37,767 nt of DNA from a virus (Duplodnaviria; Caudoviricetes). The translations under genes and the position numbers were made by a program. Below the pieces are notes generated by a model. It searched no databases and had not been told where the DNA came from. It saw only the letters and a list, made by a program, of their open reading frames with translations. Every line of letters begins with the position of its first letter. Positions within the stretch are counted from its first letter, which is position 1. This document shows, in pieces, positions 5,474 to 25,594 of this stretch. The DNA is taken from IMG/VR virus record IMGVR_UViG_3300048896_000180, positions 1 through 37,767 of that record; one strand, written 5' to 3'.

Positions 5474-5671
5474 ATGAGCGGGCCGATGCCATGTGAACGG
5501 GACTGGGTATTCGCCAGCCGGATCTGCGCGACGTTTGAACAGCCGGTGAAGCGAGATCGTGGGCAGCGCCGGACGTATTCGGAGTGGTTGATAGTCAAGT
5601 ATGTGAGCAGCGGCCTCGATTTTGAGGAATTTCGGCGAATGGTGGCGGCATTCAGGAGGGTTTTGGGATGA
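5474..5671 (+). CDS. CxxDxxF-family paralog 2 (MSGPMPCERDWVF...)
   Basis: Shared motif; operon coupling. Confidence 0.75.
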   Translation: MSGPMPCERDWVFASRICATFEQPVKRDRGQRRTYSEWLIVKYVSSGLDFEEFRRMVAAFRRVLG

Positions 5672-6024
5672 GCGAGGCGATTCCATGCCTGCGGGACCGG
5701 AGTTTTGTTGTGCGGACGATCCGGGACTTTATAGAGCCGCAGAAGGAAGGCGGGGCGCGCAAGATTTACGGGAACGTCTGGATTTCGCGTTACGTGCAAG
5801 GGATGTGGGATGCGGATCGGACGGTGCTGCGGGCGGCGGTCGCCCATGCGTTAGCGCCTTCGGCGAGCGACAGCGCGTATCGGCTGCGGCACGTTTTTGG
5901 GCTGCCCTGGGACTGTATTCCTGCGTCGGTGGGGAGTCTCCCGGACATGGCGGTGTTTGGGGGTGTCCCGGTCGTGGCTGTCCCGACGGAATACGCTGGG
6001 ATTTGGAGGTGGGTGACGGGATGA
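5668..6024 (+). CDS. CxxDxxF-family paralog 3 (MSEAIPCLRDRSF...)
   Basis: Shared motif; ATGA overlaps at both ends. Confidence 0.75.
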   Translation: MSEAIPCLRDRSFVVRTIRDFIEPQKEGGARKIYGNVWISRYVQGMWDADRTVLRAAVAHALAPSASDSAYRLRHVFGLPWDCIPASVGSLPDMAVFGGVPVVAVPTEYAGIWRWVTG

Positions 6025-6275
6025 ACTACCCCCTCTTATGCCAGGCTGACTACGATTTTTGCCAGGCGACGATCAAAATGTTTGAGAACCCGCCCAAAGC
6101 TGGCGGGGCGAGCAAGCATTACGGGGAATGGGTCGAGATGTTCCTGCGCGGGGATCTGACTGGGGGTCCGACGATGCTCAACAACGGTTTTGAGCTCTTG
6201 CAGATGTTGCGGCGGCACAGTGCGGTAGCGTTGCTTCCTGTTGAAGGCGGGCGTGGCCCAAGGCACTGGCAATGA
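6021..6275 (+). CDS. CxxDxxF-family paralog 4 (MNYPLLCQADYDF...)
   Basis: ATG 6021 in ATGA overlap; shared motif. Confidence 0.75.
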   Translation: MNYPLLCQADYDFCQATIKMFENPPKAGGASKHYGEWVEMFLRGDLTGGPTMLNNGFELLQMLRRHSAVALLPVEGGRGPRHWQ

Positions 6276-6547
6276 GAGGTGTTTGCGAGCGCGATCGTGA
6301 TTTTGCCAGGCGGGCGATCGTGGGGTTTCGCCATCCTGCGACTGGAGGCTCTCGCAGCATGTATGGGAAGGATTGGGTGCAGACTTGGGTGCAGGAGGGT
6401 TTTGATCCTGGCGAGCGCCAGCAGATGATGGCAGAGCGGAGGTGGAGATTGCGTCCGACATGGGCGGCGGAAAGGTTGCGATTGGAGCATACTTTTGGGA
6501 TCAAACTGGCTTTGGGTTCTGTGAACAGACAAAGCTCCCCCCAATAA
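6272..6547 (+). CDS. CxxDxxF-family paralog 5 (MRGVCERDRDF...)
   Basis: Shared motif; ATGA overlap. Confidence 0.75.
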   Translation: MRGVCERDRDFARRAIVGFRHPATGGSRSMYGKDWVQTWVQEGFDPGERQQMMAERRWRLRPTWAAERLRLEHTFGIKLALGSVNRQSSPQ

Positions 6548-7324: not shown

Positions 7325-7999
7325 ATGAAAAAAACCACTATCACAGTCTGCATCACCTTTACCGAGCCTCTCCTTGGAACAAGGAGCGGGGATAAAGACC
7401 TGGCAAAGACGCACCTCGAGTCCAAAGCGCCCAAGCCTGAGCTCGCAGCCGAGGAAAGCGCGCTCCTGGCAGCCATGCACCTCGAGGAGGAAATGGAGAA
7501 AGGGCGGACCATTTTCCTGAAAGACGAAACTGGGGTTTTGCTCCTGGATTATCAGCTGCGCGGTTTCATCAAGGAGACTGTTGGCGACCTGATTGAGCTG
7601 GGCGACATCAAAAAGCTCTCAAAGTGGGCGTGCAAGCGCGCCATCAATGCCTTCGTCTACGTCAATCCGCGCCTGGTCTACCTCAAAACCGCTGACGGCA
7701 AGCCAATCATGGACGTCAAGGAGTATCTGCAGCGCCCCTTGCGCGCCCAGACGATGCAGGGAGAGCGTGTTGCTCTCGCGTCGAGCGAGATCCTGCCCGT
7801 GGGCACCAACATCACATTTACGATCACCGTCCTTGAATCAACCAACCTAAAGGCGAACACAGCTGTCCTTGGGCTGGACGACATGAAAAACGTCTTGGAC
7901 TTCGGCGCGTTCAAGGGCATTGGCCAATGGAGGTCCGGCGGCTACGGACGATTTTCCTGGAAGGAAATTCCGGGAGAGCAAAGCAAAGCAGCGGCATAG
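7325..7999 (+). CDS. Stand-alone RAMP-superfamily (Cas7/Csm3-like) RNA-binding protein
   Basis: N-terminal strand ITVCITFTEPLLG, helix LLDYQLRGFIKE (cf. ipgSslKGxlR), strand EILPVGTNITFTITV and C-terminal G-rich loop GIGQWRSGGYGRF: the four ordered hallmarks of a RAMP RRM fold. No other cas gene in the window. Confidence 0.85.
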   Translation: MKKTTITVCITFTEPLLGTRSGDKDLAKTHLESKAPKPELAAEESALLAAMHLEEEMEKGRTIFLKDETGVLLLDYQLRGFIKETVGDLIELGDIKKLSKWACKRAINAFVYVNPRLVYLKTADGKPIMDVKEYLQRPLRAQTMQGERVALASSEILPVGTNITFTITVLESTNLKANTAVLGLDDMKNVLDFGAFKGIGQWRSGGYGRFSWKEIPGEQSKAAA

Positions 8000-8614
8000 T
8001 GAGGCGTGGCATGGCTATGGCAAAGCAGCGCCGGGCATCGCGAGGGCATTGCTTGGCGTAGCCTGGCTACGGCGATGCTGGGAAGTGAACTGCGAGGGCA
8101 ATGCGCGGCCCCGAGCGGCGGAGCACGGCAGCGCAATGGCAAGGCGACGTTGGACAAAGCGTGACATTGCAAAGCTGCGGCATTGCAGAGCACCGCCTTG
8201 CACGGCAACGGCTATGTGTTGCAGGCCCCTACAGGGCAGAGGCAAGGCGAGCAGCCGCGAAGCAATGGCAGGGCGCGGCACGGCGGGGCGATGGCCTCGC
8301 ACAGCGCAGCCGAGCGACGGCGAGGTAGAGCACGGCCAAGAATGACAATGGCAGGGCGAGGCGTCGCACCGGCAGAGCAAAGCGCAGCAGTGGCAAGGCG
8401 AAGTTTCGCATCGCACCGGCCTAGCTTAGCGTTGCGGGGGCAAAGCGGAGAACCGCCTCGCAGTGCAGCGGCAATGGAGTGCAAGGACTCGCATAGCAAG
8501 GGCAAGGCTGGGCCGGACGCTGAAAGGCAACGGCAACACAGCGCACAGCATGGCCATGGCACTGCGGCGTCTAGCGCGGCTCGGCAGGGGCGTGGGCAAT
8601 CCGGCCCGCGCCCC
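7977..8614 (+). ncRNA. Putative non-coding RNA precursor from the array, with a 3' hairpin
   Basis: A 5-nt period is not codon-compatible; the array is contiguous with the RAMP gene and ends in the 11-bp stem GGGGCGTGGGC-AATCCG-GCCCGCGCCCC (8587-8614). Expression is inferred, not shown. Confidence 0.55.
7993..8588 (+). repeat. Pentamer-periodic N-GC-NN array, 21 GGC-initiated units (putative guide-RNA array)
   Basis: Manual parse gives 115 steps (94 pentamers + 21 hexamers = 596 nt). 93 of 115 have GC at positions 2-3; all 21 units start GGC; unit lengths are 21, 26, 31 or 41 nt. Confidence 0.9.
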
Positions 8615-8668
8615 CAGCACAAAACTTGGGGTGACTTTTGTGACAGCTTTATGCTAATCCAGAAGCGC

Positions 8669-9037
8669 ATGAACCAAAAAGTTGTCGCACCCCTCAAAAA
8701 GAAGCTGCGCGCGCGGCTCGAAACGATCAGCGGCAAGCCCAAGGGCTTCTTCGATGAGTTCAAGCCCGCCGAGCTGGACGTCCTGGCTATCCTGCTCACC
8801 GGGACAACGAAGGATTCTCATTACTCCCAGCCATGGGAATGGATGCACCCCAAGCAGAAGTGGACGGTGGAGACGCTTAACGAAGTGCCCGTCAGGGTGT
8901 GGCTCAGCTACCGATGGGTCGGCAGAACCATCCTGCCCAAGCTCAAGGCCCGGGGATGGCTGATAACGGAAGCGCCCAAGAAGAAGAAGGACCCTGCCTT
9001 TGAATGGCCGGACAGTAAGAAGAAAAAGCAGGCCTAA
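8669..9037 (+). CDS. Basic hypothetical protein with possible HhH/alpha-CTD-like segment
   Basis: Likely start ATG 8669 (or 8651); WTVETLNEVPVRVWLSYRWVGRTILPKL loosely resembles the HhH of RNAP alpha-CTD. Confidence 0.65.
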   Translation: MNQKVVAPLKKKLRARLETISGKPKGFFDEFKPAELDVLAILLTGTTKDSHYSQPWEWMHPKQKWTVETLNEVPVRVWLSYRWVGRTILPKLKARGWLITEAPKKKKDPAFEWPDSKKKKQA

Positions 9038-12805: not shown

Positions 12806-12826
12806 GCGCTCTACGGCTTGCCGTAA
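12316..12826. repeat. 16-bp direct repeats CTACGGCTTGCCGTAA (12316-12331, 12811-12826)
   Basis: Identical 16-mers, each containing the inverted repeat TACGGC-TT-GCCGTA. Confidence 0.8.
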
Positions 12827-13695
12827 TTGGCCAGCCCAGGAGGGACCAGTGGGCGGTTTCCGTTCGTGTTCCCGGGAGTGATCGGAGGCCGATTCTCAGC
12901 TGGCTCTGATTCGATCAGCGCAGACAGCAGTTTGTAGCGGGCAGGGTTTTGCTTCTGCAGCTTGGCCAGCAGTTCTTTCCGGCTGGCTGGGGTCGCGTCG
13001 AGCACGGCCTTGACGCTCACGGCTGGATCAGCGGCCTGGGCTGAGAGCATGAGGATCGCCGCCGATGCCGCCATGATCACCATGCGTTTCCGCGCCAGCG
13101 CAAAAGCGGCCAAGGCGATGCCGACAATAGCGCACGCCGCCGCTGGCTCAGGCACGGGCGCAAATCCGGCGTTGGCCCCAAAGAATCCCTTGTTGGCCCC
13201 AGCAACGTCGAGGTCTGGGTATTCAAACCCCGTCCCGCTGGAGAGATAGGCGTCCCCAACTGTAACGCCGCTCGTCACGGTCACCGATGTGGCATTCCCG
13301 CGCGCCAGGTCAAAATCGTTGTCGAGGTAATGCGCGGCGATCAGATAGGTGCTTCCCGCCGTTAGCGTCAGAGGCGTTGGCAGGTTCATATACCAAAACT
13401 CATCGATCTTCGTAGCGCCGGTCGCTGGGATCACGACTGACGCCAGCAGGTTGTGCTGCGGGGAAACGTCCCAGATTCCAACCTCATGCGAACTGAACAG
13501 GCCAAACCCGCCCGAGGACTCCCAGACGCCGAGGGTGCGAATGGTCAGCGGGGCCGCTCCGACAGTGAACGAATATCCGGCCGTTCCTGGCCCAACCGAC
13601 AGATCGTCTCCTCCTGAAAAGCTGGCGACGAGCTGCGCGGCTGGGAACAGGGTTGACGACAATAGGACGCAAACGATGCAAAGAGCAGTTTTCAT
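12811..13695 (-). CDS. Secreted PEP-CTERM-type protein (DUF4082-like beta domain) with C-terminal extension
   Basis: Signal peptide; GYSFTV...LGVW...HEVGIWD domain; VPEP + TM + ARKR sorting signal followed by ~90 more residues. Confidence 0.8.
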   Translation of the reverse strand: MKTALCIVCVLLSSTLFPAAQLVASFSGGDDLSVGPGTAGYSFTVGAAPLTIRTLGVWESSGGFGLFSSHEVGIWDVSPQHNLLASVVIPATGATKIDEFWYMNLPTPLTLTAGSTYLIAAHYLDNDFDLARGNATSVTVTSGVTVGDAYLSSGTGFEYPDLDVAGANKGFFGANAGFAPVPEPAAACAIVGIALAAFALARKRMVIMAASAAILMLSAQAADPAVSVKAVLDATPASRKELLAKLQKQNPARYKLLSALIESEPAENRPPITPGNTNGNRPLVPPGLANYGKP

Positions 13696-18116: not shown

Positions 18117-21100
18117 CTAACGGAGCCCCGATTCTTTTGCCGCCTGGTTCATCGCCTGGGCAATGTTCATGATCTCAAGCGCGTAGGCCTGGCGCTCCTT
18201 GTCGGAGTCTGCGGAGCGCGCCGCCTTGCGCAGCTCAGCCATTGCCGTAGCTGCCTTGTCGAAGCCCTCGGTCAGCCCCACCCAATCCTTGCCCTCGCCC
18301 TTGATTTCCCATCGATGCTTTTCCCCATGCAGTTTGGTCCGAAGATCGTAGAAGTCCTGAACGGACTGGCTTTGAATGCCCGCTGGTGCTGTGAAAAACC
18401 TGCCCCATGGCGCGGTATTCTGCGCAGTGCGCTGCTCGCCAGTCACCGCCGAGATGACGCGATCGACGCCTTGGTGCGTCACCTGTTTGCCGAGACCGCC
18501 GGTCATGCGGCTGATGAAGTGATCGACTTTGATTGGCGAGACGCCCATCAGCTCACCCAAGTGGCGCGCGGTTAAGCTCTGCTGATCGGTGAATTGCATA
18601 TCGGGCGCATAATCCGCAACCGTCTGCGGGATCATCCCCCGTTCCCGGAAGAAGTCGTAACCAGACATGAGCTCAAGGCTGGCCATGACAGCTGGCGGGA
18701 GCGGATTAGGGAGCAACGCCCCGCCGATGGTATTTTGCAGGCCTTTCAGCGCGTGCAGGTCGCCGCCTTCTTTGTACATCTGAATCAACCGGCCTGGGAG
18801 GGTGGCAAAGATGATGCCCGCCTCAAACGGGACTGGCAGCGGGATGAACTTGCTGTGACCGTTCTCGTCCGTCCCATAGCGGATGTTGAAGGACAGGTCC
18901 CGCCTCCACTGCGGGAGCTCCCAGTAATCGGGATCGTTATAGTTGTACGCTTGCTCGGCGAGCTTGGCCAAGGTGATGTAGGTGAAGCCGCGCAGCATCG
19001 TCCCAGCGAAGTCGCGTTTGAACGATTGCGCCAGCCGGACATTGCCTTGCAGGGCAGCGTTCCAGAAAGGGGCGATCTGCCGCAGAGACTTGGTTTTCGC
19101 GCCGCCCTTAGCGAAGTCTTGCCGGTCGCGAGATTCAAATGCCGCCAAGATCCTGGCGTCGCCTTCGGGCATGCCACCCTTGATGAGATCCTTGTAGATC
19201 GTCTCGTATTCGCCGATGCGCGTCGCCTCTTCCAATGTGCCCGTCAGAAACTTCAATGCGCTGATCGGATTATACTGCACCAATGCGCGCTGCACTGGGG
19301 TCATCTCCTTGGTGATTTTCTCACGCAGAAACTTGGTGAGCGCCTCTGGGTTGAAATAGGCTGATTCAACCGCATTCCTCCCGCCAGCCGCTGACCATTC
19401 CGCAACCAGCTTCGGCTTGTTGAGCAGCGCAGCTACACCCTTGAGCATGGCTTCAAATGGGACCAGGCCATACTCCGAGACAACCGCCGAAGAGAAGGCG
19501 TCCCGGAACGGGTTAGCGCCTAGCGCAAAGCCAGGGTCCAGCGTCACGCCCGCCCGCAGAAGGTCTGCCGACTTGGCCAGCATGCGGACCAGCGCCGTGC
19601 TGTCCTCCAGGTCCAGGGAGTGGAAGGTGTTGTACAGCTCAGTCTTGAGCTGGTAGAACTTCGCTGTGTCGCCTTGGACAACGCGAATGATGTTGTTCCC
19701 GTTCGGGATCTGCCTCGAGTTACGCCAGAACGACAGGAGCGACTCATCAGGCACGTCGGTAAGATCAGCGCCAAGATCCTCGAGCTGCTTGCGGACACGC
19801 TCGAGCTCAAACTTGACCTGCTCCTTGGGTGCGCCAACGTCACTGACCCATTCACCCATGCCTTTCATTTTCGACAGCCTGGCCAGCCTGGTGTGAATCC
19901 AATGCTTTTCCGCCGCCGTCGTCAGGACGTAGGCGTTTTTGACCATCGTCTCGAGCGGGTTCATGATCGCCCGGGGTGAGCCGCCCAAGTGGCGCAACGA
20001 TCCAGGCATGCCGAGATTCAGCCCGCCGCCAGCATGCCCGCCAGCCTGTGAGCCTTCCTCACCAGCCCCGATCTCGTAAAGCCGGTGAAACGGGACAAAG
20101 TCTTGATGCAGCTTTCGCATGGCTGCCGCCGCCTTGCGCGTGACAAGCCCAGCGTCGACGGCGTACTGCAGGAGTGAGTCCTGCCAGGCCTTGAGCTTTT
20201 CAAACGTGTCGTTGAAGAGCTTATTGTTCTCGAATTTCTTCACGACGGCAGCAGTGGCGTCGCGCGGGATGCCGGTCTCTTTGCCCTGCCGGTTCAACTC
20301 CATGGCGCGCAGGGAAACGATGTAGTCGACAAAGTCAGCAGTGTGCCCGCTGATCGGCTTCAAGATGTCATTGAAGCTATTTCCAAGAGTCACCTCCTTG
20401 GTGTGAAAATCAACCGTCCCATGCCGGACGAAGGTGTCAGCCCGGCCATAGGCCCCGCGCAGCAGCCTGGCGAGCATGTAGATATTATCCTTCGGCCGGA
20501 TCGCTTTCCCGCCCAAGCGCTCAGCGTCGTCCATGACGATCCGCAGAATGTGCAGGTCATCGATCAAATCCCTTGTGAGCTGGCGCAGGGTCATCTGCGT
20601 CTTGTTCGGATTCCCGGTGACGACGTGCGCCCTGACTTTCGCCTGCGCCTCCGACCCTGCCCAAGTCTGGTAGTCGTCGCGCGCGGTCCGCATGGTGTTG
20701 CCGTAGTCGCGATTGGAGTCCAAGCCTGCCTCAAAGGCGGCATACGTTTTCGGCGCGAGCTTCTTAGCCTTGGCGGGGTCCATCATCCAATGACGGGTGA
20801 ACTCAGCCACGCCCTCGCCGAGCTTGTAAGCCTTGCTCTTGCTCTTCGTCCAGGAGGAGTGCGAGCCCGGCGACAACGAAGGATCGCCGAGGACATCGAG
20901 CTCGGCCGCAATCGCAGGGTCCTTAGAGAATCCAAAGACAGCGTCCAGCTTGTGCCCAACCTCATGCGAGACCACTAGGAAGTCCTGGGCCCGGTTGCTT
21001 CGGATCAGGTTTTGGAGCGGGGCGAAGAAACCGCCAAACCTCGGATGCGGGGTCTTCCCGTAACGGATCGGCACGCCCAAGCCCTTGGCCATTTCCTTGA

Positions 21101-24100
21101 TGATCTGATGCAGCGGCTTGACCGGCTTGACTGCCGCTGCAGCCGCAGCTGGTGTCGGGATCGGTGGCGCTTTCGCGCCCGGCGCAGCCCCTTGCGGTTC
21201 GTCAAAAAGGTCCGGCCCAAGGTCGCTTGCCGCCGAGCCGGCTGGTTGATCGCCCTCCTCACCCTTGCGCGCCTCTGCCTCGGCCTCCTGCAGCCAGGTC
21301 TGGCCTTGCTTGTGACTGGGCGCTGATTCGCTGTAACCCCGGCGAGTTGCGGAGCTGGCGTCCAAGCTCATCGCTTTCCTGAGCGTCTCCATGAGCGTTT
21401 TCCCGCTTCGGAGCAGCTTGTAAACACCGTCCCCAGGAACGGCGATAATGGCGTTCCCTCTGCCTTCCGCCGCCATGGCCTTGATCATGAACTCAGCGTC
21501 AGCCATCGAATCGACGGTGAGCGTCACCGCCTCTTTGGCCGCATTCACGCGCCAAGTCCTGACCTTGAAAGCTCCCTTGTCAGTTTCCTCAACCTCCCCG
21601 AAGGAGATCGCCCCGCTATCGGCTTGAGCCACGTAAGTCCCATCCTCCCGGCGGCTGAGCGTCACCTTGTCTTTGCCCAGAGTCTCAGCGAGCGCCTGCT
21701 TGATGCGGTTGACGAGCTCGTCTTTGACGTCCCCAGCCGGGCGACCGCCCTTGGTCCCGGGCTTGCCCGCCGAATTGGCGACAGCCTGCGCTTCCACCAT
21801 CATCTTGTCCTCTTTGGCCTTTTCCTCGGCGAGCTCTTTAGCGCTGCGCTCAGCCGTCTCAGCGCTCTCTTTGTGGACGCGTTCGCTCTCTGACTTGATG
21901 AGCTTATGCAGCTCGTCCAGCTCAGGGCCCGGCAGCTTCTCTACCGGCTTGCCATACATCTCCGGTGAGCGTTCAAAGGGCGTGTACTTCGAGATGCGCG
22001 CCCGGGCCTCAGGTGAAAACTGGTGATAGGGCACGCCTGGCCCTTTGATCGCCGTCTCCAGCTCGGCCGCGCGCGCGGCGTGCACCTTGAACGCCGGATT
22101 GAATTCCACTTCCTTGGCGACGTCGTTCTGTAGCTGCGCCGCCCGTTCGACTTCGTTGGCCAGGCGGAACATTTCGGACTCCCGCACGTCGGGGAAGTGC
22201 TTGCGCACCTCAGCCTCAGCTTCGGCGCGAAGCATGTCTCCGAGCTCCATCGGGACCGCCTCGCCCTTTTCGCCGAACATGCGGACTCGAGCGCCAAGCC
22301 GGTTCAAGAGCGGCTTGCTCTCGTCGTTCACGATCTTGGCCAGCATCGCCAAGTCAGTAGCCAGCTGATCCTTGGCCGCGCCCCGCCGGATCGCATCCTT
22401 TTGCGTCTCGAGAGAATGCACCTCCCGGGACAGCTCGTGATACCGCGCGACATCGGCCTTTTTCGCTGATGCCTTGATGCGGCCTTTGTTCCAGCCCCTG
22501 GTGCTCAGGATTTCCTTGGCAAGCTCCTGGTGGGCCTCATAGGTCTTCTTGCGCTGCTCCTCGAGCGCGTCGATCTGGCGCTGGGCGAACTTCGCCGCTT
22601 CCTTAGCCTCGCTGTTGTCTGGGGCCTCCGCTTGGAGCCACTTGTTTGACGGCTTGGGCGTCTCGGTTGGCGGCTTGGCGGGCGTTGCCTCCTCCGTTGG
22701 CTTGGGTGCTGGCGGCTCGGGTGGCTTTGGCGCGCGAGTCTGCTTGTCCAGAATATCGTGAGCTTCCTCCACTCGAATCAGGTTGCGCTGTTCCTTGGTG
22801 TAGCCGAGATCAGCGAGCCCTTGCTCCATCTCCCTCGTGATCCATAGCGGCTTGGAGATCTTGCCCTCGCCTGGCTTGGTCTCAGCGCTCGGTGTGGGCG
22901 TCGGCTCTGGCGGGGCGGCTGCCTCCTTCTTGTGCTGGTCGAGAACCTCCTGCAGGTCCACGATCGCCTCAAGCCGCCCCTCGTCGGACAGATGCGGCGC
23001 TACCTGGTCGAGAGCCTGGCTGATAGTCATCTCCCCGTTGAGGATCTTTAGAGCGTGATCGAGGTCGAGTCCCTCGCCCATGAACAAGCTGACGGTCGTC
23101 TCGAGCTTGGGATCAATCTCAGCCTTGGGAGGTTCCGGCGGCTTGGGCGGTTCCGCTGGCGCTGTGGGCGGTTCTGGCGCGGGCGCGGCGTCGGGAGGCA
23201 GATCCGCCTGGGGGCCAACCTTGAGCGGCTCTGGGGCCAGCGTAGACGGTTCAGCGACCGTCCCGGGGGCTGCGTCCTGAGTTGTCCCAGGTTTCAGCTC
23301 TGGGAATACCTGATTGCGCAGGTCGCGCGCCTGCTCTGATGTCAGATAGGGGAACGCTTCAACGATCTTCTGCCTGGTGTTCAGGTTCTTCGATTTGATC
23401 GTGTCTAAGACGTTCTGCTGCTGATCCGCCTCAAACTGTTGCTTGGCGCGCTCTTTCTGCAGCGCTGTGACGTCCCGATCGAGCTCTGGTTCTGTCGCTG
23501 GCACTTCTGGCCGGGCCGCTTTCCGCTGGGCCTGCACGTCGCGACCAGAGGGATTGAAGACGCCGGACACCCAACCGCTCATGCTGGGATCAATGTCTGG
23601 GCTGGCTGGGCGCGGAGCCTGGCGCTGCCTCTTCGTCACCCTTGCGGTCTCCGGGATCAGCTCACCGACAAGCGGGTCAAGCCTGGTCCCGCGCGCAATC
23701 TCATCGACGGACATTTCCCGCATGCCTTGCGCTGCCGTCTCCCGCACCGCACGCCCGGTTGCTTTCAGGCCATACCTCGCCGCCATTGGCGTGCCGAGCG
23801 TCAGCCCAAGCCCGAATAGCCGCCCCTGAGCTGCCTCGTCGCCGTTCCATGCCTTTGGCGTGTCCTCGGCGATCGTCTTGAGGATGTCTGGACCGTATCG
23901 CCCAAGCAGGATGGCCTCACCGAGCGGGTTGAGCGCCATCAGCGCCTCCTCTGGCTTGTTGAGCGCCCACTCACCAAGCCCAACGATCATGCCCGAAGCT
24001 TCGTTTTCAAACGAGCCGGGCTTGCCAAGGCGCGGCAGCGTGATCGGGCCAGGCTCTTGGATTATGTCCTCGTTCGTGTGCGGACGGTCCAGCTGCGCCT

Positions 24101-24362
24101 GCTCAAACTTGCGCTGAGCTTCCGCCGCACCCTGGTCCCGATCCTCCCTCGCTGGGAATGCTTGCGTTGTTCGCAGATTGCTGGCCGGTTCGCTGGAGAA
24201 CATCCCGCCCGGGGCTGGGACGTCAACCCGACTGCTAGAACTTTCCGGCGTCGGGGCCAGCTCTGGGAATGCTTTAACGATCTCACGATTGATCTCATCG
24301 GGGCCCATCCCGTCAGGAAATTCAATCGTGCGATTGCCCGGGAGGTCTACGGTTTGAGGCAT
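18117..24362 (-). CDS. Large polyvalent / ejection (internal virion) protein with C-terminal LPD38-type domain
   Basis: ~2080 aa, likely start ATG 24362; zincin-like SHEVGH; C-terminal DYWELPQWRRD...IPLPVPFEAGIIF typical of LPD38; last gene of the virion operon. Confidence 0.8.
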   Translation of the reverse strand: MPQTVDLPGNRTIEFPDGMGPDEINREIVKAFPELAPTPESSSSRVDVPAPGGMFSSEPASNLRTTQAFPAREDRDQGAAEAQRKFEQAQLDRPHTNEDIIQEPGPITLPRLGKPGSFENEASGMIVGLGEWALNKPEEALMALNPLGEAILLGRYGPDILKTIAEDTPKAWNGDEAAQGRLFGLGLTLGTPMAARYGLKATGRAVRETAAQGMREMSVDEIARGTRLDPLVGELIPETARVTKRQRQAPRPASPDIDPSMSGWVSGVFNPSGRDVQAQRKAARPEVPATEPELDRDVTALQKERAKQQFEADQQQNVLDTIKSKNLNTRQKIVEAFPYLTSEQARDLRNQVFPELKPGTTQDAAPGTVAEPSTLAPEPLKVGPQADLPPDAAPAPEPPTAPAEPPKPPEPPKAEIDPKLETTVSLFMGEGLDLDHALKILNGEMTISQALDQVAPHLSDEGRLEAIVDLQEVLDQHKKEAAAPPEPTPTPSAETKPGEGKISKPLWITREMEQGLADLGYTKEQRNLIRVEEAHDILDKQTRAPKPPEPPAPKPTEEATPAKPPTETPKPSNKWLQAEAPDNSEAKEAAKFAQRQIDALEEQRKKTYEAHQELAKEILSTRGWNKGRIKASAKKADVARYHELSREVHSLETQKDAIRRGAAKDQLATDLAMLAKIVNDESKPLLNRLGARVRMFGEKGEAVPMELGDMLRAEAEAEVRKHFPDVRESEMFRLANEVERAAQLQNDVAKEVEFNPAFKVHAARAAELETAIKGPGVPYHQFSPEARARISKYTPFERSPEMYGKPVEKLPGPELDELHKLIKSESERVHKESAETAERSAKELAEEKAKEDKMMVEAQAVANSAGKPGTKGGRPAGDVKDELVNRIKQALAETLGKDKVTLSRREDGTYVAQADSGAISFGEVEETDKGAFKVRTWRVNAAKEAVTLTVDSMADAEFMIKAMAAEGRGNAIIAVPGDGVYKLLRSGKTLMETLRKAMSLDASSATRRGYSESAPSHKQGQTWLQEAEAEARKGEEGDQPAGSAASDLGPDLFDEPQGAAPGAKAPPIPTPAAAAAAVKPVKPLHQIIKEMAKGLGVPIRYGKTPHPRFGGFFAPLQNLIRSNRAQDFLVVSHEVGHKLDAVFGFSKDPAIAAELDVLGDPSLSPGSHSSWTKSKSKAYKLGEGVAEFTRHWMMDPAKAKKLAPKTYAAFEAGLDSNRDYGNTMRTARDDYQTWAGSEAQAKVRAHVVTGNPNKTQMTLRQLTRDLIDDLHILRIVMDDAERLGGKAIRPKDNIYMLARLLRGAYGRADTFVRHGTVDFHTKEVTLGNSFNDILKPISGHTADFVDYIVSLRAMELNRQGKETGIPRDATAAVVKKFENNKLFNDTFEKLKAWQDSLLQYAVDAGLVTRKAAAAMRKLHQDFVPFHRLYEIGAGEEGSQAGGHAGGGLNLGMPGSLRHLGGSPRAIMNPLETMVKNAYVLTTAAEKHWIHTRLARLSKMKGMGEWVSDVGAPKEQVKFELERVRKQLEDLGADLTDVPDESLLSFWRNSRQIPNGNNIIRVVQGDTAKFYQLKTELYNTFHSLDLEDSTALVRMLAKSADLLRAGVTLDPGFALGANPFRDAFSSAVVSEYGLVPFEAMLKGVAALLNKPKLVAEWSAAGGRNAVESAYFNPEALTKFLREKITKEMTPVQRALVQYNPISALKFLTGTLEEATRIGEYETIYKDLIKGGMPEGDARILAAFESRDRQDFAKGGAKTKSLRQIAPFWNAALQGNVRLAQSFKRDFAGTMLRGFTYITLAKLAEQAYNYNDPDYWELPQWRRDLSFNIRYGTDENGHSKFIPLPVPFEAGIIFATLPGRLIQMYKEGGDLHALKGLQNTIGGALLPNPLPPAVMASLELMSGYDFFRERGMIPQTVADYAPDMQFTDQQSLTARHLGELMGVSPIKVDHFISRMTGGLGKQVTHQGVDRVISAVTGEQRTAQNTAPWGRFFTAPAGIQSQSVQDFYDLRTKLHGEKHRWEIKGEGKDWVGLTEGFDKAATAMAELRKAARSADSDKERQAYALEIMNIAQAMNQAAKESGLR

Positions 24363-24364
24363 GG

Positions 24365-25594
24365 CTATTTCTGGATTACGCCTGTGGGCGTCCACTGATA
24401 ACGGGTTTTGGGCGTCCACCAATGCGTTGCTGCGGGAGGGGCTACCGGCTGCGGCGGCTCGGTCGTGGTCCCAGGTGTGTTAGCGCCTGCCCCATTTCCA
24501 TGCCGGGGGGCATTGTAGGAGCTGGGCGTATTGGAAAGCTCCCCGTCGATCTGCTTTAGCCGGTCCTGCATCGCAGGCCACTTGACCTTGTTCCACGGTT
24601 CGCCGAGGGCCTTCATGATTCCAGCTCGCTCCTGCACGAGCGCGTTGTAATGCGCCCGCACTTGTGAGCCTTCATGGGCCCGATCAAACGCGCCAAGGCC
24701 TTCACGCAAGCTGTCAGCTGTCTCGTAATCACCATCCGCCTCGGCGGCGTCAATCTGCTCTTTGATGTTCTGGCGAAACGCAAAATTCTGAATTTGCGCG
24801 GTGCCATGGTTCGCCCCGTAACGCGAGCCTGGCATTTCGCTTTGCATGGCCTGGATCTTGTCCTTGAGGAAAGCCTGGCGCTCTTTGCCTGTGGCATACA
24901 GCGGGTTGCCCTCGTCCATGCCCGCCGTCGCAGCCTCAGACTGCCGCAGCTCGGCTTGAGTCTCGGCCAAATGCCCGGCGGTGACGTTGTAATGATCACT
25001 AGCGTCTGCCGTCTGCTGCAACTCCCTGCCCCGATAGGTCAGCTTGTTTTCGTCGGCGACCTTGCGCGCCTTGCCTAGTTCAATGGGGTCGTAGGTTCCC
25101 GTCTTGGGGTCCGGCTGAACAAGCGGCCCATGGTCCTTGAAGATCTCAAGCGCTTCCTTCTGATACCCTGCATTGGTCTCCTGGACCTGTTTGACGAAGT
25201 CGGTCTTGTTGTCGAATGCCTGCCGGTCGGATGCCCACTTGTTATAGCGGGTCGCCTGGAAGAAGGGAGTCTCGACGCCCTGTGTTCCGCGCGGGTTGGC
25301 ATTCACCTGAGCTCGAAAGTCGGCGAACCTCTGCGCCTCAGCCTTCTCGAATCCCTGCTGCTCGAGCGCGTCGTTGACGTTCATCGTCTCCTGCTGCAGC
25401 GCGAGCTCGGCGTGCTGGTTCTGCAGTGTCCTGGACTTCACCTCGAGCGGGAGAGTCTGCTGCTGGACGGACAGCTGGTTGGCAAAGTTGAGCCAGCCCA
25501 GGACGTTGCTCCCGCCCCCGCCAGAGCTTTCGGCGTCGTGATGAGGTTCCCAGTTTTTCTGCAGCCAGGGAGGAGGGTTTGTATCAAGTGGCAT
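24365..25594 (-). CDS. Probable internal virion (ejection) protein
   Basis: Gln/Ala-rich helical 409-aa protein upstream of the giant protein. Confidence 0.6.
   Translation of the reverse strand: MPLDTNPPPWLQKNWEPHHDAESSGGGGSNVLGWLNFANQLSVQQQTLPLEVKSRTLQNQHAELALQQETMNVNDALEQQGFEKAEAQRFADFRAQVNANPRGTQGVETPFFQATRYNKWASDRQAFDNKTDFVKQVQETNAGYQKEALEIFKDHGPLVQPDPKTGTYDPIELGKARKVADENKLTYRGRELQQTADASDHYNVTAGHLAETQAELRQSEAATAGMDEGNPLYATGKERQAFLKDKIQAMQSEMPGSRYGANHGTAQIQNFAFRQNIKEQIDAAEADGDYETADSLREGLGAFDRAHEGSQVRAHYNALVQERAGIMKALGEPWNKVKWPAMQDRLKQIDGELSNTPSSYNAPRHGNGAGANTPGTTTEPPQPVAPPAATHWWTPKTRYQWTPTGVIQK

Follow-up and report, generated by a model that had tools for sequence, protein, structure and literature searches.

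What does the array of five-base steps that lies directly behind a small gene of this phage store, and how is it read? The window, by which we mean the whole stretch of DNA that was analysed, is a 37.8-kb virus record with an integrase, a repressor-like HTH protein, RadC, an LPD38 protein and tail genes. No Cas family was identified in its 34 ORFs, no CRISPR repeats were found, and there was no Rfam match. Seven of the ten sequencing runs listed contain at least a fifth of the window; all seven are soil metagenomes of 2025, one of them possibly the source of the record, and may belong to one campaign. No RNA run figures among the ten, a fact with no bearing on expression. The features discussed are collected in Table 1. 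On the evidence presented below, the array very likely supplies the guide RNAs of a VIPR system carried by the phage, and its units likely decode contiguously, at three bases per step, to DNA targets that would be bound and silenced.

Table 1 Features of the window and their positions
Feature	Position	Strand	Basis or remark
vipr, 224-aa minimal RAMP resembling Cas7; thumb hairpin, glycine-rich loop	7325..7999	+	homologs, structure model
Three lead-in steps in array grammar	7977..7992	+	inside last codons of vipr
Staggered vrRNA-type array	7993..8588	+	21 units G(GC-NNN)n, n = 4-8; predicted decode 12-24 nt each
172-nt block swapped for 100 other bases, flanks near-identical	8013..8184	+	X5, X7
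Unit 12 (31 nt), exactly absent in two related strains	8319..8349	+	joint 8318 to 8350 in X6, X7
Extra 21-nt unit (three pentamers and a hexamer) in related strains	junction 8469..8470	+	X5, X6, X7
Two predicted hairpins (11-bp stem; terminator-like stem with T-run)	8587..8642	+	folding
128-aa ORF, no known family (Pfam, PHROG)	8651..9037	+	behind array
2101-aa protein with LPD38 domain (E 6e-26)	18117-24422	-	likely injected polyvalent virion protein

Grammar of the array

The array is about 600 bases long and consists of units of 21–41 nt, every one of length 5n+1 (21/21). All 21 units open with GGC, and 16 of them with GGCA. This parse had been proposed from the letters alone (hereafter the sequence-only reading), and all 21 starts and lengths were reproduced, as was the presence of GC at positions 2–3 in 93 of the 115 steps. 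The periodicity that it implies is also clear: GC pairs at a lag of five bases number 56 in the array, whereas 1000 shuffles that kept the dinucleotides gave 19.9 ± 3.8 (maximum 30), and no other stretch of equal size in the window has more than 17. At the +1 register shifts, G precedes GC in 21/21 cases, compared with 36/94 of the other steps.

The sequence-only reading divided the step into selected scaffold positions and information at positions 4 and 5. The entropy is indeed non-uniform, and a split into scaffold and information is supported, but its boundaries need to be moved. In the non-first pentamers (n = 73), scaffold positions 2 and 3 have entropies of 0.54 and 0.99 bits, and positions 4 and 5 of 1.79 and 1.97 bits, while position 1 has 1.94 bits. 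Position 1 is thus as variable as positions 4 and 5, and there are therefore three variable bases per step, namely 4, 5 and the next position 1. The array is better written as [G(GC-NNN)n]m, in which every step combines two scaffold bases with three variable ones, and an additional G separates the units.

The hairpins at the 3′ end of the array have a predicted energy of −31 kcal/mol (z −2.3; 4/200 shuffles as good), and are likely to form a transcript end or tail. The terminator-like site within them (8612-8631) is weak, four such sites being found in the scan where 3.2 were expected. Folding of the array interior was no better than that of shuffles in two of three stretches, and showed no structured tail on each unit. 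A consensus scan found no sigma-70 promoter. The ORF that follows has no homolog in 160 related loci and is probably not part of the system. Two related strains (X5, X7) diverge from the window at 8675, just 3′ of the array, and the region downstream of this point is exchangeable.

The vipr gene and its place among VIPR systems

The array adjoins the 3′ side of vipr, and its grammar begins within the last codons of the gene. The protein has 1457 homologs, and its clade comprises more than 1400 protein clusters, from soil to gut. The window protein itself matches no Pfam or PHROG family, and a profile of 95 homologs matches type VII Cas7 (E 0.002). An AlphaFold (AF2) model (pLDDT 89.8) predicts an RRM core, a thumb hairpin (E133-157) and a G-loop, with no second RRM. 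The best PDB match of this model is type VII Cas7 (E 2.2e-8), and 137 Cas7/Csm3 chains match at E ≤ 0.001; it also matches a phage RAMP (E 2.4e-19). As modelled, the window Vipr has the minimal-RAMP composition of VIPR, namely RRM core, thumb and G-loop.

A SUSP1 Vipr was picked out of the SUSP1 genome by the residues named in the accessible text of 10.64898/2026.04.26.720927, and ranks first when the homolog profile is run against 101 SUSP1 ORFs (E 0.0045). Its similarity to the window family is weak (hhalign 21% over 35 columns, in the G-loop only; 38/185 identical). The G-loop residues W178 and R179 are kept (W in 95/95 and R in 93/95 homologs). In this low-identity alignment, H17 is replaced by T or S in 86/95 homologs and D177 by Q in 88/95, and R138 has no clear counterpart among the 95. 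In SUSP1 Vipr, H17 and D177 read G1; with both replaced, position 1 would be available to the target base that is skipped in SUSP1.

The grammar is found beside vipr across the clade. A free parser, allowed steps of 4–7 nt, chose almost only 5 and 6, and placed G first in 96% of 369 units. A grammar-trained parser found arrays in 80/80 IMG/VR loci (the best 80 of 599 confirmed) and 77/80 GTDB loci (the best 80 of 123), that is in 157/160 loci in all, although this parser had the best arrays as its training set and enforces the grammar, and the 80/80 and 77/80 include weak calls (L008, L076). The last triplet of the units is biased, being AAA in 486, AAC in 193 and AAT in 183 of 1829. Across 161 loci there is no nuclease beside vipr and no conserved neighbour, except that gut members share genes for phage recombination and replication.

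The layout varies among relatives. Arrays flank vipr on both sides in some loci (L003:3103-5206, L037, L028, L033, L056), the L003 array being of low complexity, with about 61 units and several tandem duplicates. In others the array lies up to a few kb away (L027:7123-7873, L044:1455-3188, L235). In gut members (for example L028, L063) scaffold position 3 is relaxed from C to C/A/T, nearing NNNNG; in the GTDB set this position is C in 50% and A in 31%. One relative, G009 (L029), is a 119.7-kb record compared with about 80 kb in its relatives, and no targets were found in it.

Staggered vrRNA arrays and YNNNG repeats have already been named in the VIPR preprint (10.64898/2026.04.26.720920), whose accessible text gives NNNGG, YNNNG and NNNNG as alternatives to the GGY/NN array repeat. 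In that text the staggered arrays are not among the architectures confirmed by sRNA-seq, and the vap accessory gene is ‘typically’ present rather than universal. The window locus resembles these staggered systems closely. It is a viral setting with no CRISPR array or cas operon, and has a stand-alone RAMP gene directly followed by a pentamer array, whose C-NNN-G corresponds to their YNNNG. The one-base register shifts, present at 21/21 junctions, correspond to their ‘1 nt overlapping’ vrRNAs, as matched by legend text, and there is no self-target. A vap gene is absent at the window and across the 161 loci. Published VIPR repeats number 9–16 per unit, compared with 4–8 steps here. Three target bases per step would fit the spacing of the VIPR rule, NN with one skipped base, but in the present clade the array itself appears to keep the base that this rule skips; in the accessible text of the preprint, targets are sought by the two-base, one-skip rule only.

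The type II VIPR of SUSP1 (described in the accessible parts of 10.64898/2026.04.26.720920, 10.64898/2026.04.26.720927 and 10.64898/2026.10.15.759431) is reported to have one protomer per repeat and to bind dsDNA, repressing transcription without cutting (10.64898/2026.04.26.720927). In the structures described there, G1, G2, Y3 and the target's third base are flipped out. The window shares with SUSP1 the RRM core, thumb, G-loop and W178/R179, and presumably the five-base step per subunit. The SUSP1 locus, which was examined, has a GGY/NN scaffold, separate vrRNAs of about 100 nt, a pseudoknot tail on each, and a vap1 gene, whereas the window has a GC/NNN scaffold, units joined head to tail, a single region of hairpins at the array's end, and replacements of H17 and D177, and lacks a conserved accessory gene. 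The type II pattern of 9–16 YNNGG repeats with a structured 3′ tail on each vrRNA is absent. The window units have no spacer between them. Non-canonical VIPR-like 5-mer clusters likewise have alternative or degenerate scaffolds beside Vipr-like folds, but their model, in the accessible text of 10.64898/2026.10.21.760802, has three fixed and two variable bases, whereas the window clade has two fixed and three variable.

There is also a resemblance to the Cas7/Csm3 backbone of class 1 CRISPR, both in the fold, as judged by the best PDB matches, and in the logic of a repeat-and-variable array. Class 1 CRISPR-Cas itself was rejected: the window has no direct repeats with spacers and no cas genes or operon, and its scaffold is interleaved every five bases. 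We conclude that the window locus is very likely a member of VIPR. The system and its staggered layout are already published; the new part would be the three-base code. No test of such a code was found in the accessible part of the VIPR literature, and figs S17-S18 and data S3-S4 of the preprint may bear on it.

What the variable bases encode

Suppose that position 1 keeps the base passed over by SUSP1. Bases 4 and 5 of one step and base 1 of the following step, joined across the scaffold, should then read as natural DNA. In the joined triplets of 621 IMG/VR unit clusters, TAA and TAG together occur 55 times, compared with 83.5 ± 5.7 in shuffles (0/2000). This depletion persists where position 3 is not C, so that CTAG avoidance cannot act. 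Correlations across the scaffold, between bases that are not adjacent in the array, have z 2.9 within units and 4.3 globally; cross-scaffold dinucleotide odds agree with those of natural DNA at r 0.65, and a third measure gave z 0.9–1.8. In an independent set of 811 GTDB clusters, the three-base decode has a Markov z of 6.4, stops in the scaffold-straddling frame number 180 compared with 230 ± 10, and a ribosome site plus ATG is found 10 times compared with 4.6 ± 1.9, with ATG in all three registers. When scaffold position 3 was used in place of position 1 as a control, z was −2.0. Shuffling the order of triplets left the Markov score unchanged (z 0.5), and raised the straddling stops to 254. 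The environmental subclade that includes the window (352 units) has a z of 3.5; taken by themselves, the 21 units of the window give no such signal (Markov z −1.1; straddling stops 7 vs 4.1, in the wrong direction).

Units also share sequence out of register. Three 14-mers are common to units in different registers, compared with 0.1 ± 0.4 in shuffles (1786 units; 60 shuffles, maximum 2), and sharing at ≥13 nt involves three independent unit pairs, the longest shared stretches being 14-15-mers. Peptide-level matches showed no enrichment in 106 long units. On these statistics, the units likely decode to contiguous DNA of 12–24 nt, with three target letters per step. We are confident that position 1 carries a target base in the clade, and somewhat less so, though still fairly sure, that by kinship it does so in the window array.

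Many relatives' units (L264, L256, L262, L276, L278, L014/L017, L028 family) decode to a ribosome-binding site and start codon, which suggests that gene starts are preferentially targeted.

Carrying a target base is not the same as pairing with it, and here we lean only slightly towards pairing. The position-1 base might instead be copied when a unit is written and then be flipped out and left unpaired, as in a two-base, one-skip VIPR, in which case the signal would be a trace of acquisition and nothing more. This is what the SUSP1 structures described above would lead one to expect (10.64898/2026.04.26.720927, accessible text), and all of the three-base decode statistics fit copying as well as they fit pairing. 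The change rates in homologous units (37/447 at position 1, 47/447 at position 3, 60/475 at position 4 and 52/459 at position 5) likewise show no extra constraint on position 1, and, being similar, do not separate a base that is read from one that is copied but ignored. Such a reading would however leave just 8–16 read bases per unit, and sits poorly with the replacement across the clade of both G1-contacting residues, in the low-identity alignment noted above. Moreover, in unit pairs picked on positions 4–5 alone, position 1 is no more variable than 4–5. We therefore regard skipping of position 1 as a tenable but doubtful account. The fuller proposal, that in the three-base clade Vipr flips out scaffold bases only and pairs three bases per subunit, and that guides are written de novo in mid-array, as copies of target DNA interleaved with GC and set apart by one G each, with no adaptation enzyme in the locus, seems to us evenly balanced.

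The code has consequences. Should the three bases of each step come from the target, an ordinary sequence search would suffice to find targets for this widespread clade, and the ‘wobble-proof’ skipping seen in SUSP1 would not extend to all VIPR systems. Three-base pairing, if true, would be intermediate between the gapped pairing of VIPR and the contiguous pairing of CRISPR. Each new unit would then be a scaffold-interleaved copy of traceable DNA, and the origin of new vrRNAs, for which no explanation was found in the accessible VIPR literature, would become testable. De novo writing of guides, if true, would expose an unknown guide-writing mechanism.

Units, guides and targets

Contigs of related strains from soil metagenomes were aligned on the window, at depths of 3–7. 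Three strains (X5, X6, X7) differ from it by gain or loss of whole units exactly at junctions (Table 1). X6 has a further 21 nt near 8383, which parses as a new junction; X2-X4 show no differences over the stretches that they cover, and otherwise the strains differ by a handful of substitutions. Whole units are also absent between related gut-phage arrays. Given such exact gain and loss between close strains, the units are real modules, and each is very probably an independent one. The suggestion from the sequence alone that the units are guide-sized modules is supported, in agreement with published staggered VIPR arrays. Entire units are new in some strains of the window phage; they were therefore acquired recently, and their acquisition can be tracked.

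The sequence-only reading also took runs of equal-length neighbours to mean growth by duplication followed by diversification, and this was not upheld. In the window, adjacent units of equal length resemble each other no more than units that are not adjacent do (33/105 vs 159/507 identical bases), and in 129 arrays the identities are 0.304 for neighbours and 0.285 for non-neighbours. Only 5/368 neighbour pairs in the clade are near-identical. Equal-length neighbours number 390/1532 in the clade compared with 376 expected, and 10/20 in the window alone (p 0.026). Since neighbours are not more alike, duplication appears to be rare, and each new unit looks to have been written on its own. In L021, L008 and L285 there are some tandem duplications of units, exact or nearly so, as well as chimeric units, which show recombination inside arrays.

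The mechanism that we propose is as follows. vipr and the array would be transcribed together, as far as the hairpins at 8587-8642. Vipr would coat the array RNA with one subunit per five-base step, as established for SUSP1. The extra G would break the five-base register and so close one filament and open another, whether through cutting or simply because phase is lost, and the resulting complexes would have 4–8 subunits and one guide per unit. These may bind dsDNA matching the 12–24-nt decode and block transcription, repression having been shown for SUSP1. To judge from relatives, the targets are likely to be replication and gene-start regions of rival phages, and restriction or defence genes. 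New units would likely arise as copies of target DNA into which GC is placed behind each third base.

We consider it reasonably likely that the units are cut into separate RNAs. The RNA could alternatively be kept long, or in multi-unit pieces, with the extra G as a hinge and neighbouring units cooperating, for example as split guides. The shortness of the units and the lack of a structured tail on each point this way, as does the lack of a nuclease or conserved accessory gene beside vipr in 161 loci, and processing of staggered arrays is not among that confirmed in the accessible text of 10.64898/2026.04.26.720920. We nevertheless find a long RNA unlikely: single units are gained and lost in mid-array, and whole units are missing between gut-phage arrays, which would break fixed pairs of units. 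Far less probable still is that the array has nothing to do with the upstream gene and is a decayed microsatellite or protein-coding repeat. Long open frames do span it (7920-8345, 8183-9037), and two of the strain indels (21 nt; 172 to 100 nt) preserve the frame. However, the position-specific entropy speaks against a decayed microsatellite, and a coding repeat is rejected because the 31-nt deletion shifts the frame and unit lengths span all frames; loss of that unit implies that there is no coding constraint on the array. In addition, the grammar accompanies the RAMP gene in 157/160 loci, and neighbours are not related by descent.

Two familiar motifs, chosen by hand among the decoded units, were then tested. 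A 17-nt unit core matched four viral contigs; in three of them the match falls within the GKDRLG repeat that a DnaD-like replication gene contains. The unit agrees with one of these at 22/24 bases, although 17 of 21 contiguous bases are the query itself and the motif is repetitive. A second phage's unit matches the GKDRLG repeat at 21/30; position 1 falls on the first codon base, and 8/10 such bases match. A unit encoding MATGTGKT (L231 array) has matches in 5/151 host-family genomes (control 2), the best being in hsdR (L343:205-3021, Walker A region), at 22/23 typed bases and 22/27 over the whole unit. This hints that some clade phages may silence type I restriction genes. The replication-gene and hsdR matches are best described as homologs of targets, not as proven targets.

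Units of three phages (L079/L232, L289, L295; genes L336-L338) decode to the GKDRLG repeat of DnaD-like genes. The DNA of this repeat is itself five-base-periodic, and resembles canonical GGY/NN arrays.

No full-length target was found for any unit in searches of viral, phage, host and metagenome DNA, and window unit 6 had none in the viral or metagenome contigs scanned. Within its own genome, 0/21 window units scored above shuffles. Self- and cross-targets were absent from about 400 kb of related regions, mostly gut phage genomes, and from a host prophage contig. Targets were found in 0/44 phage records and 0/5 genomes; 301 genomes gave one match, with no extension (24/42). The ResIII loci of five host genomes held no target, and searches of DnaD-like genes gave no usable target set. 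Contiguous scans gave no match in GTDB, none in metagenomes for window unit 6, and none in one further scan; others gave 13 unrelated-looking matches, and 8 matches of 4 distinct sequences with no co-targeting. NN-only decodes with 0–3 skips, for 332 units of seven or more steps against 1.3 Mb, were at the level of shuffles. Scanned against viral contigs by their NN bases alone, three units yielded 6, 78 and 38 stretches, in which the skip base agreed about as often as expected by chance (at best 4/8 for window unit 6 and 6/8 for a ribosome-site unit). Units of 12–15 nt with A-biased ends are short for unique targeting.

Two further regions of the window may be mentioned. Between 5057 and 6547 there are small overlapping ORFs of similar wording (5474-5671, 5668-6024, 6272-6547), which may be diverged paralogs; those scanned had no Pfam match. 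The ORF at 12811-13695 on the minus strand has weak matches to PEP-CTERM and DUF4082, below the cut-off, which are a possible hint at the host group.
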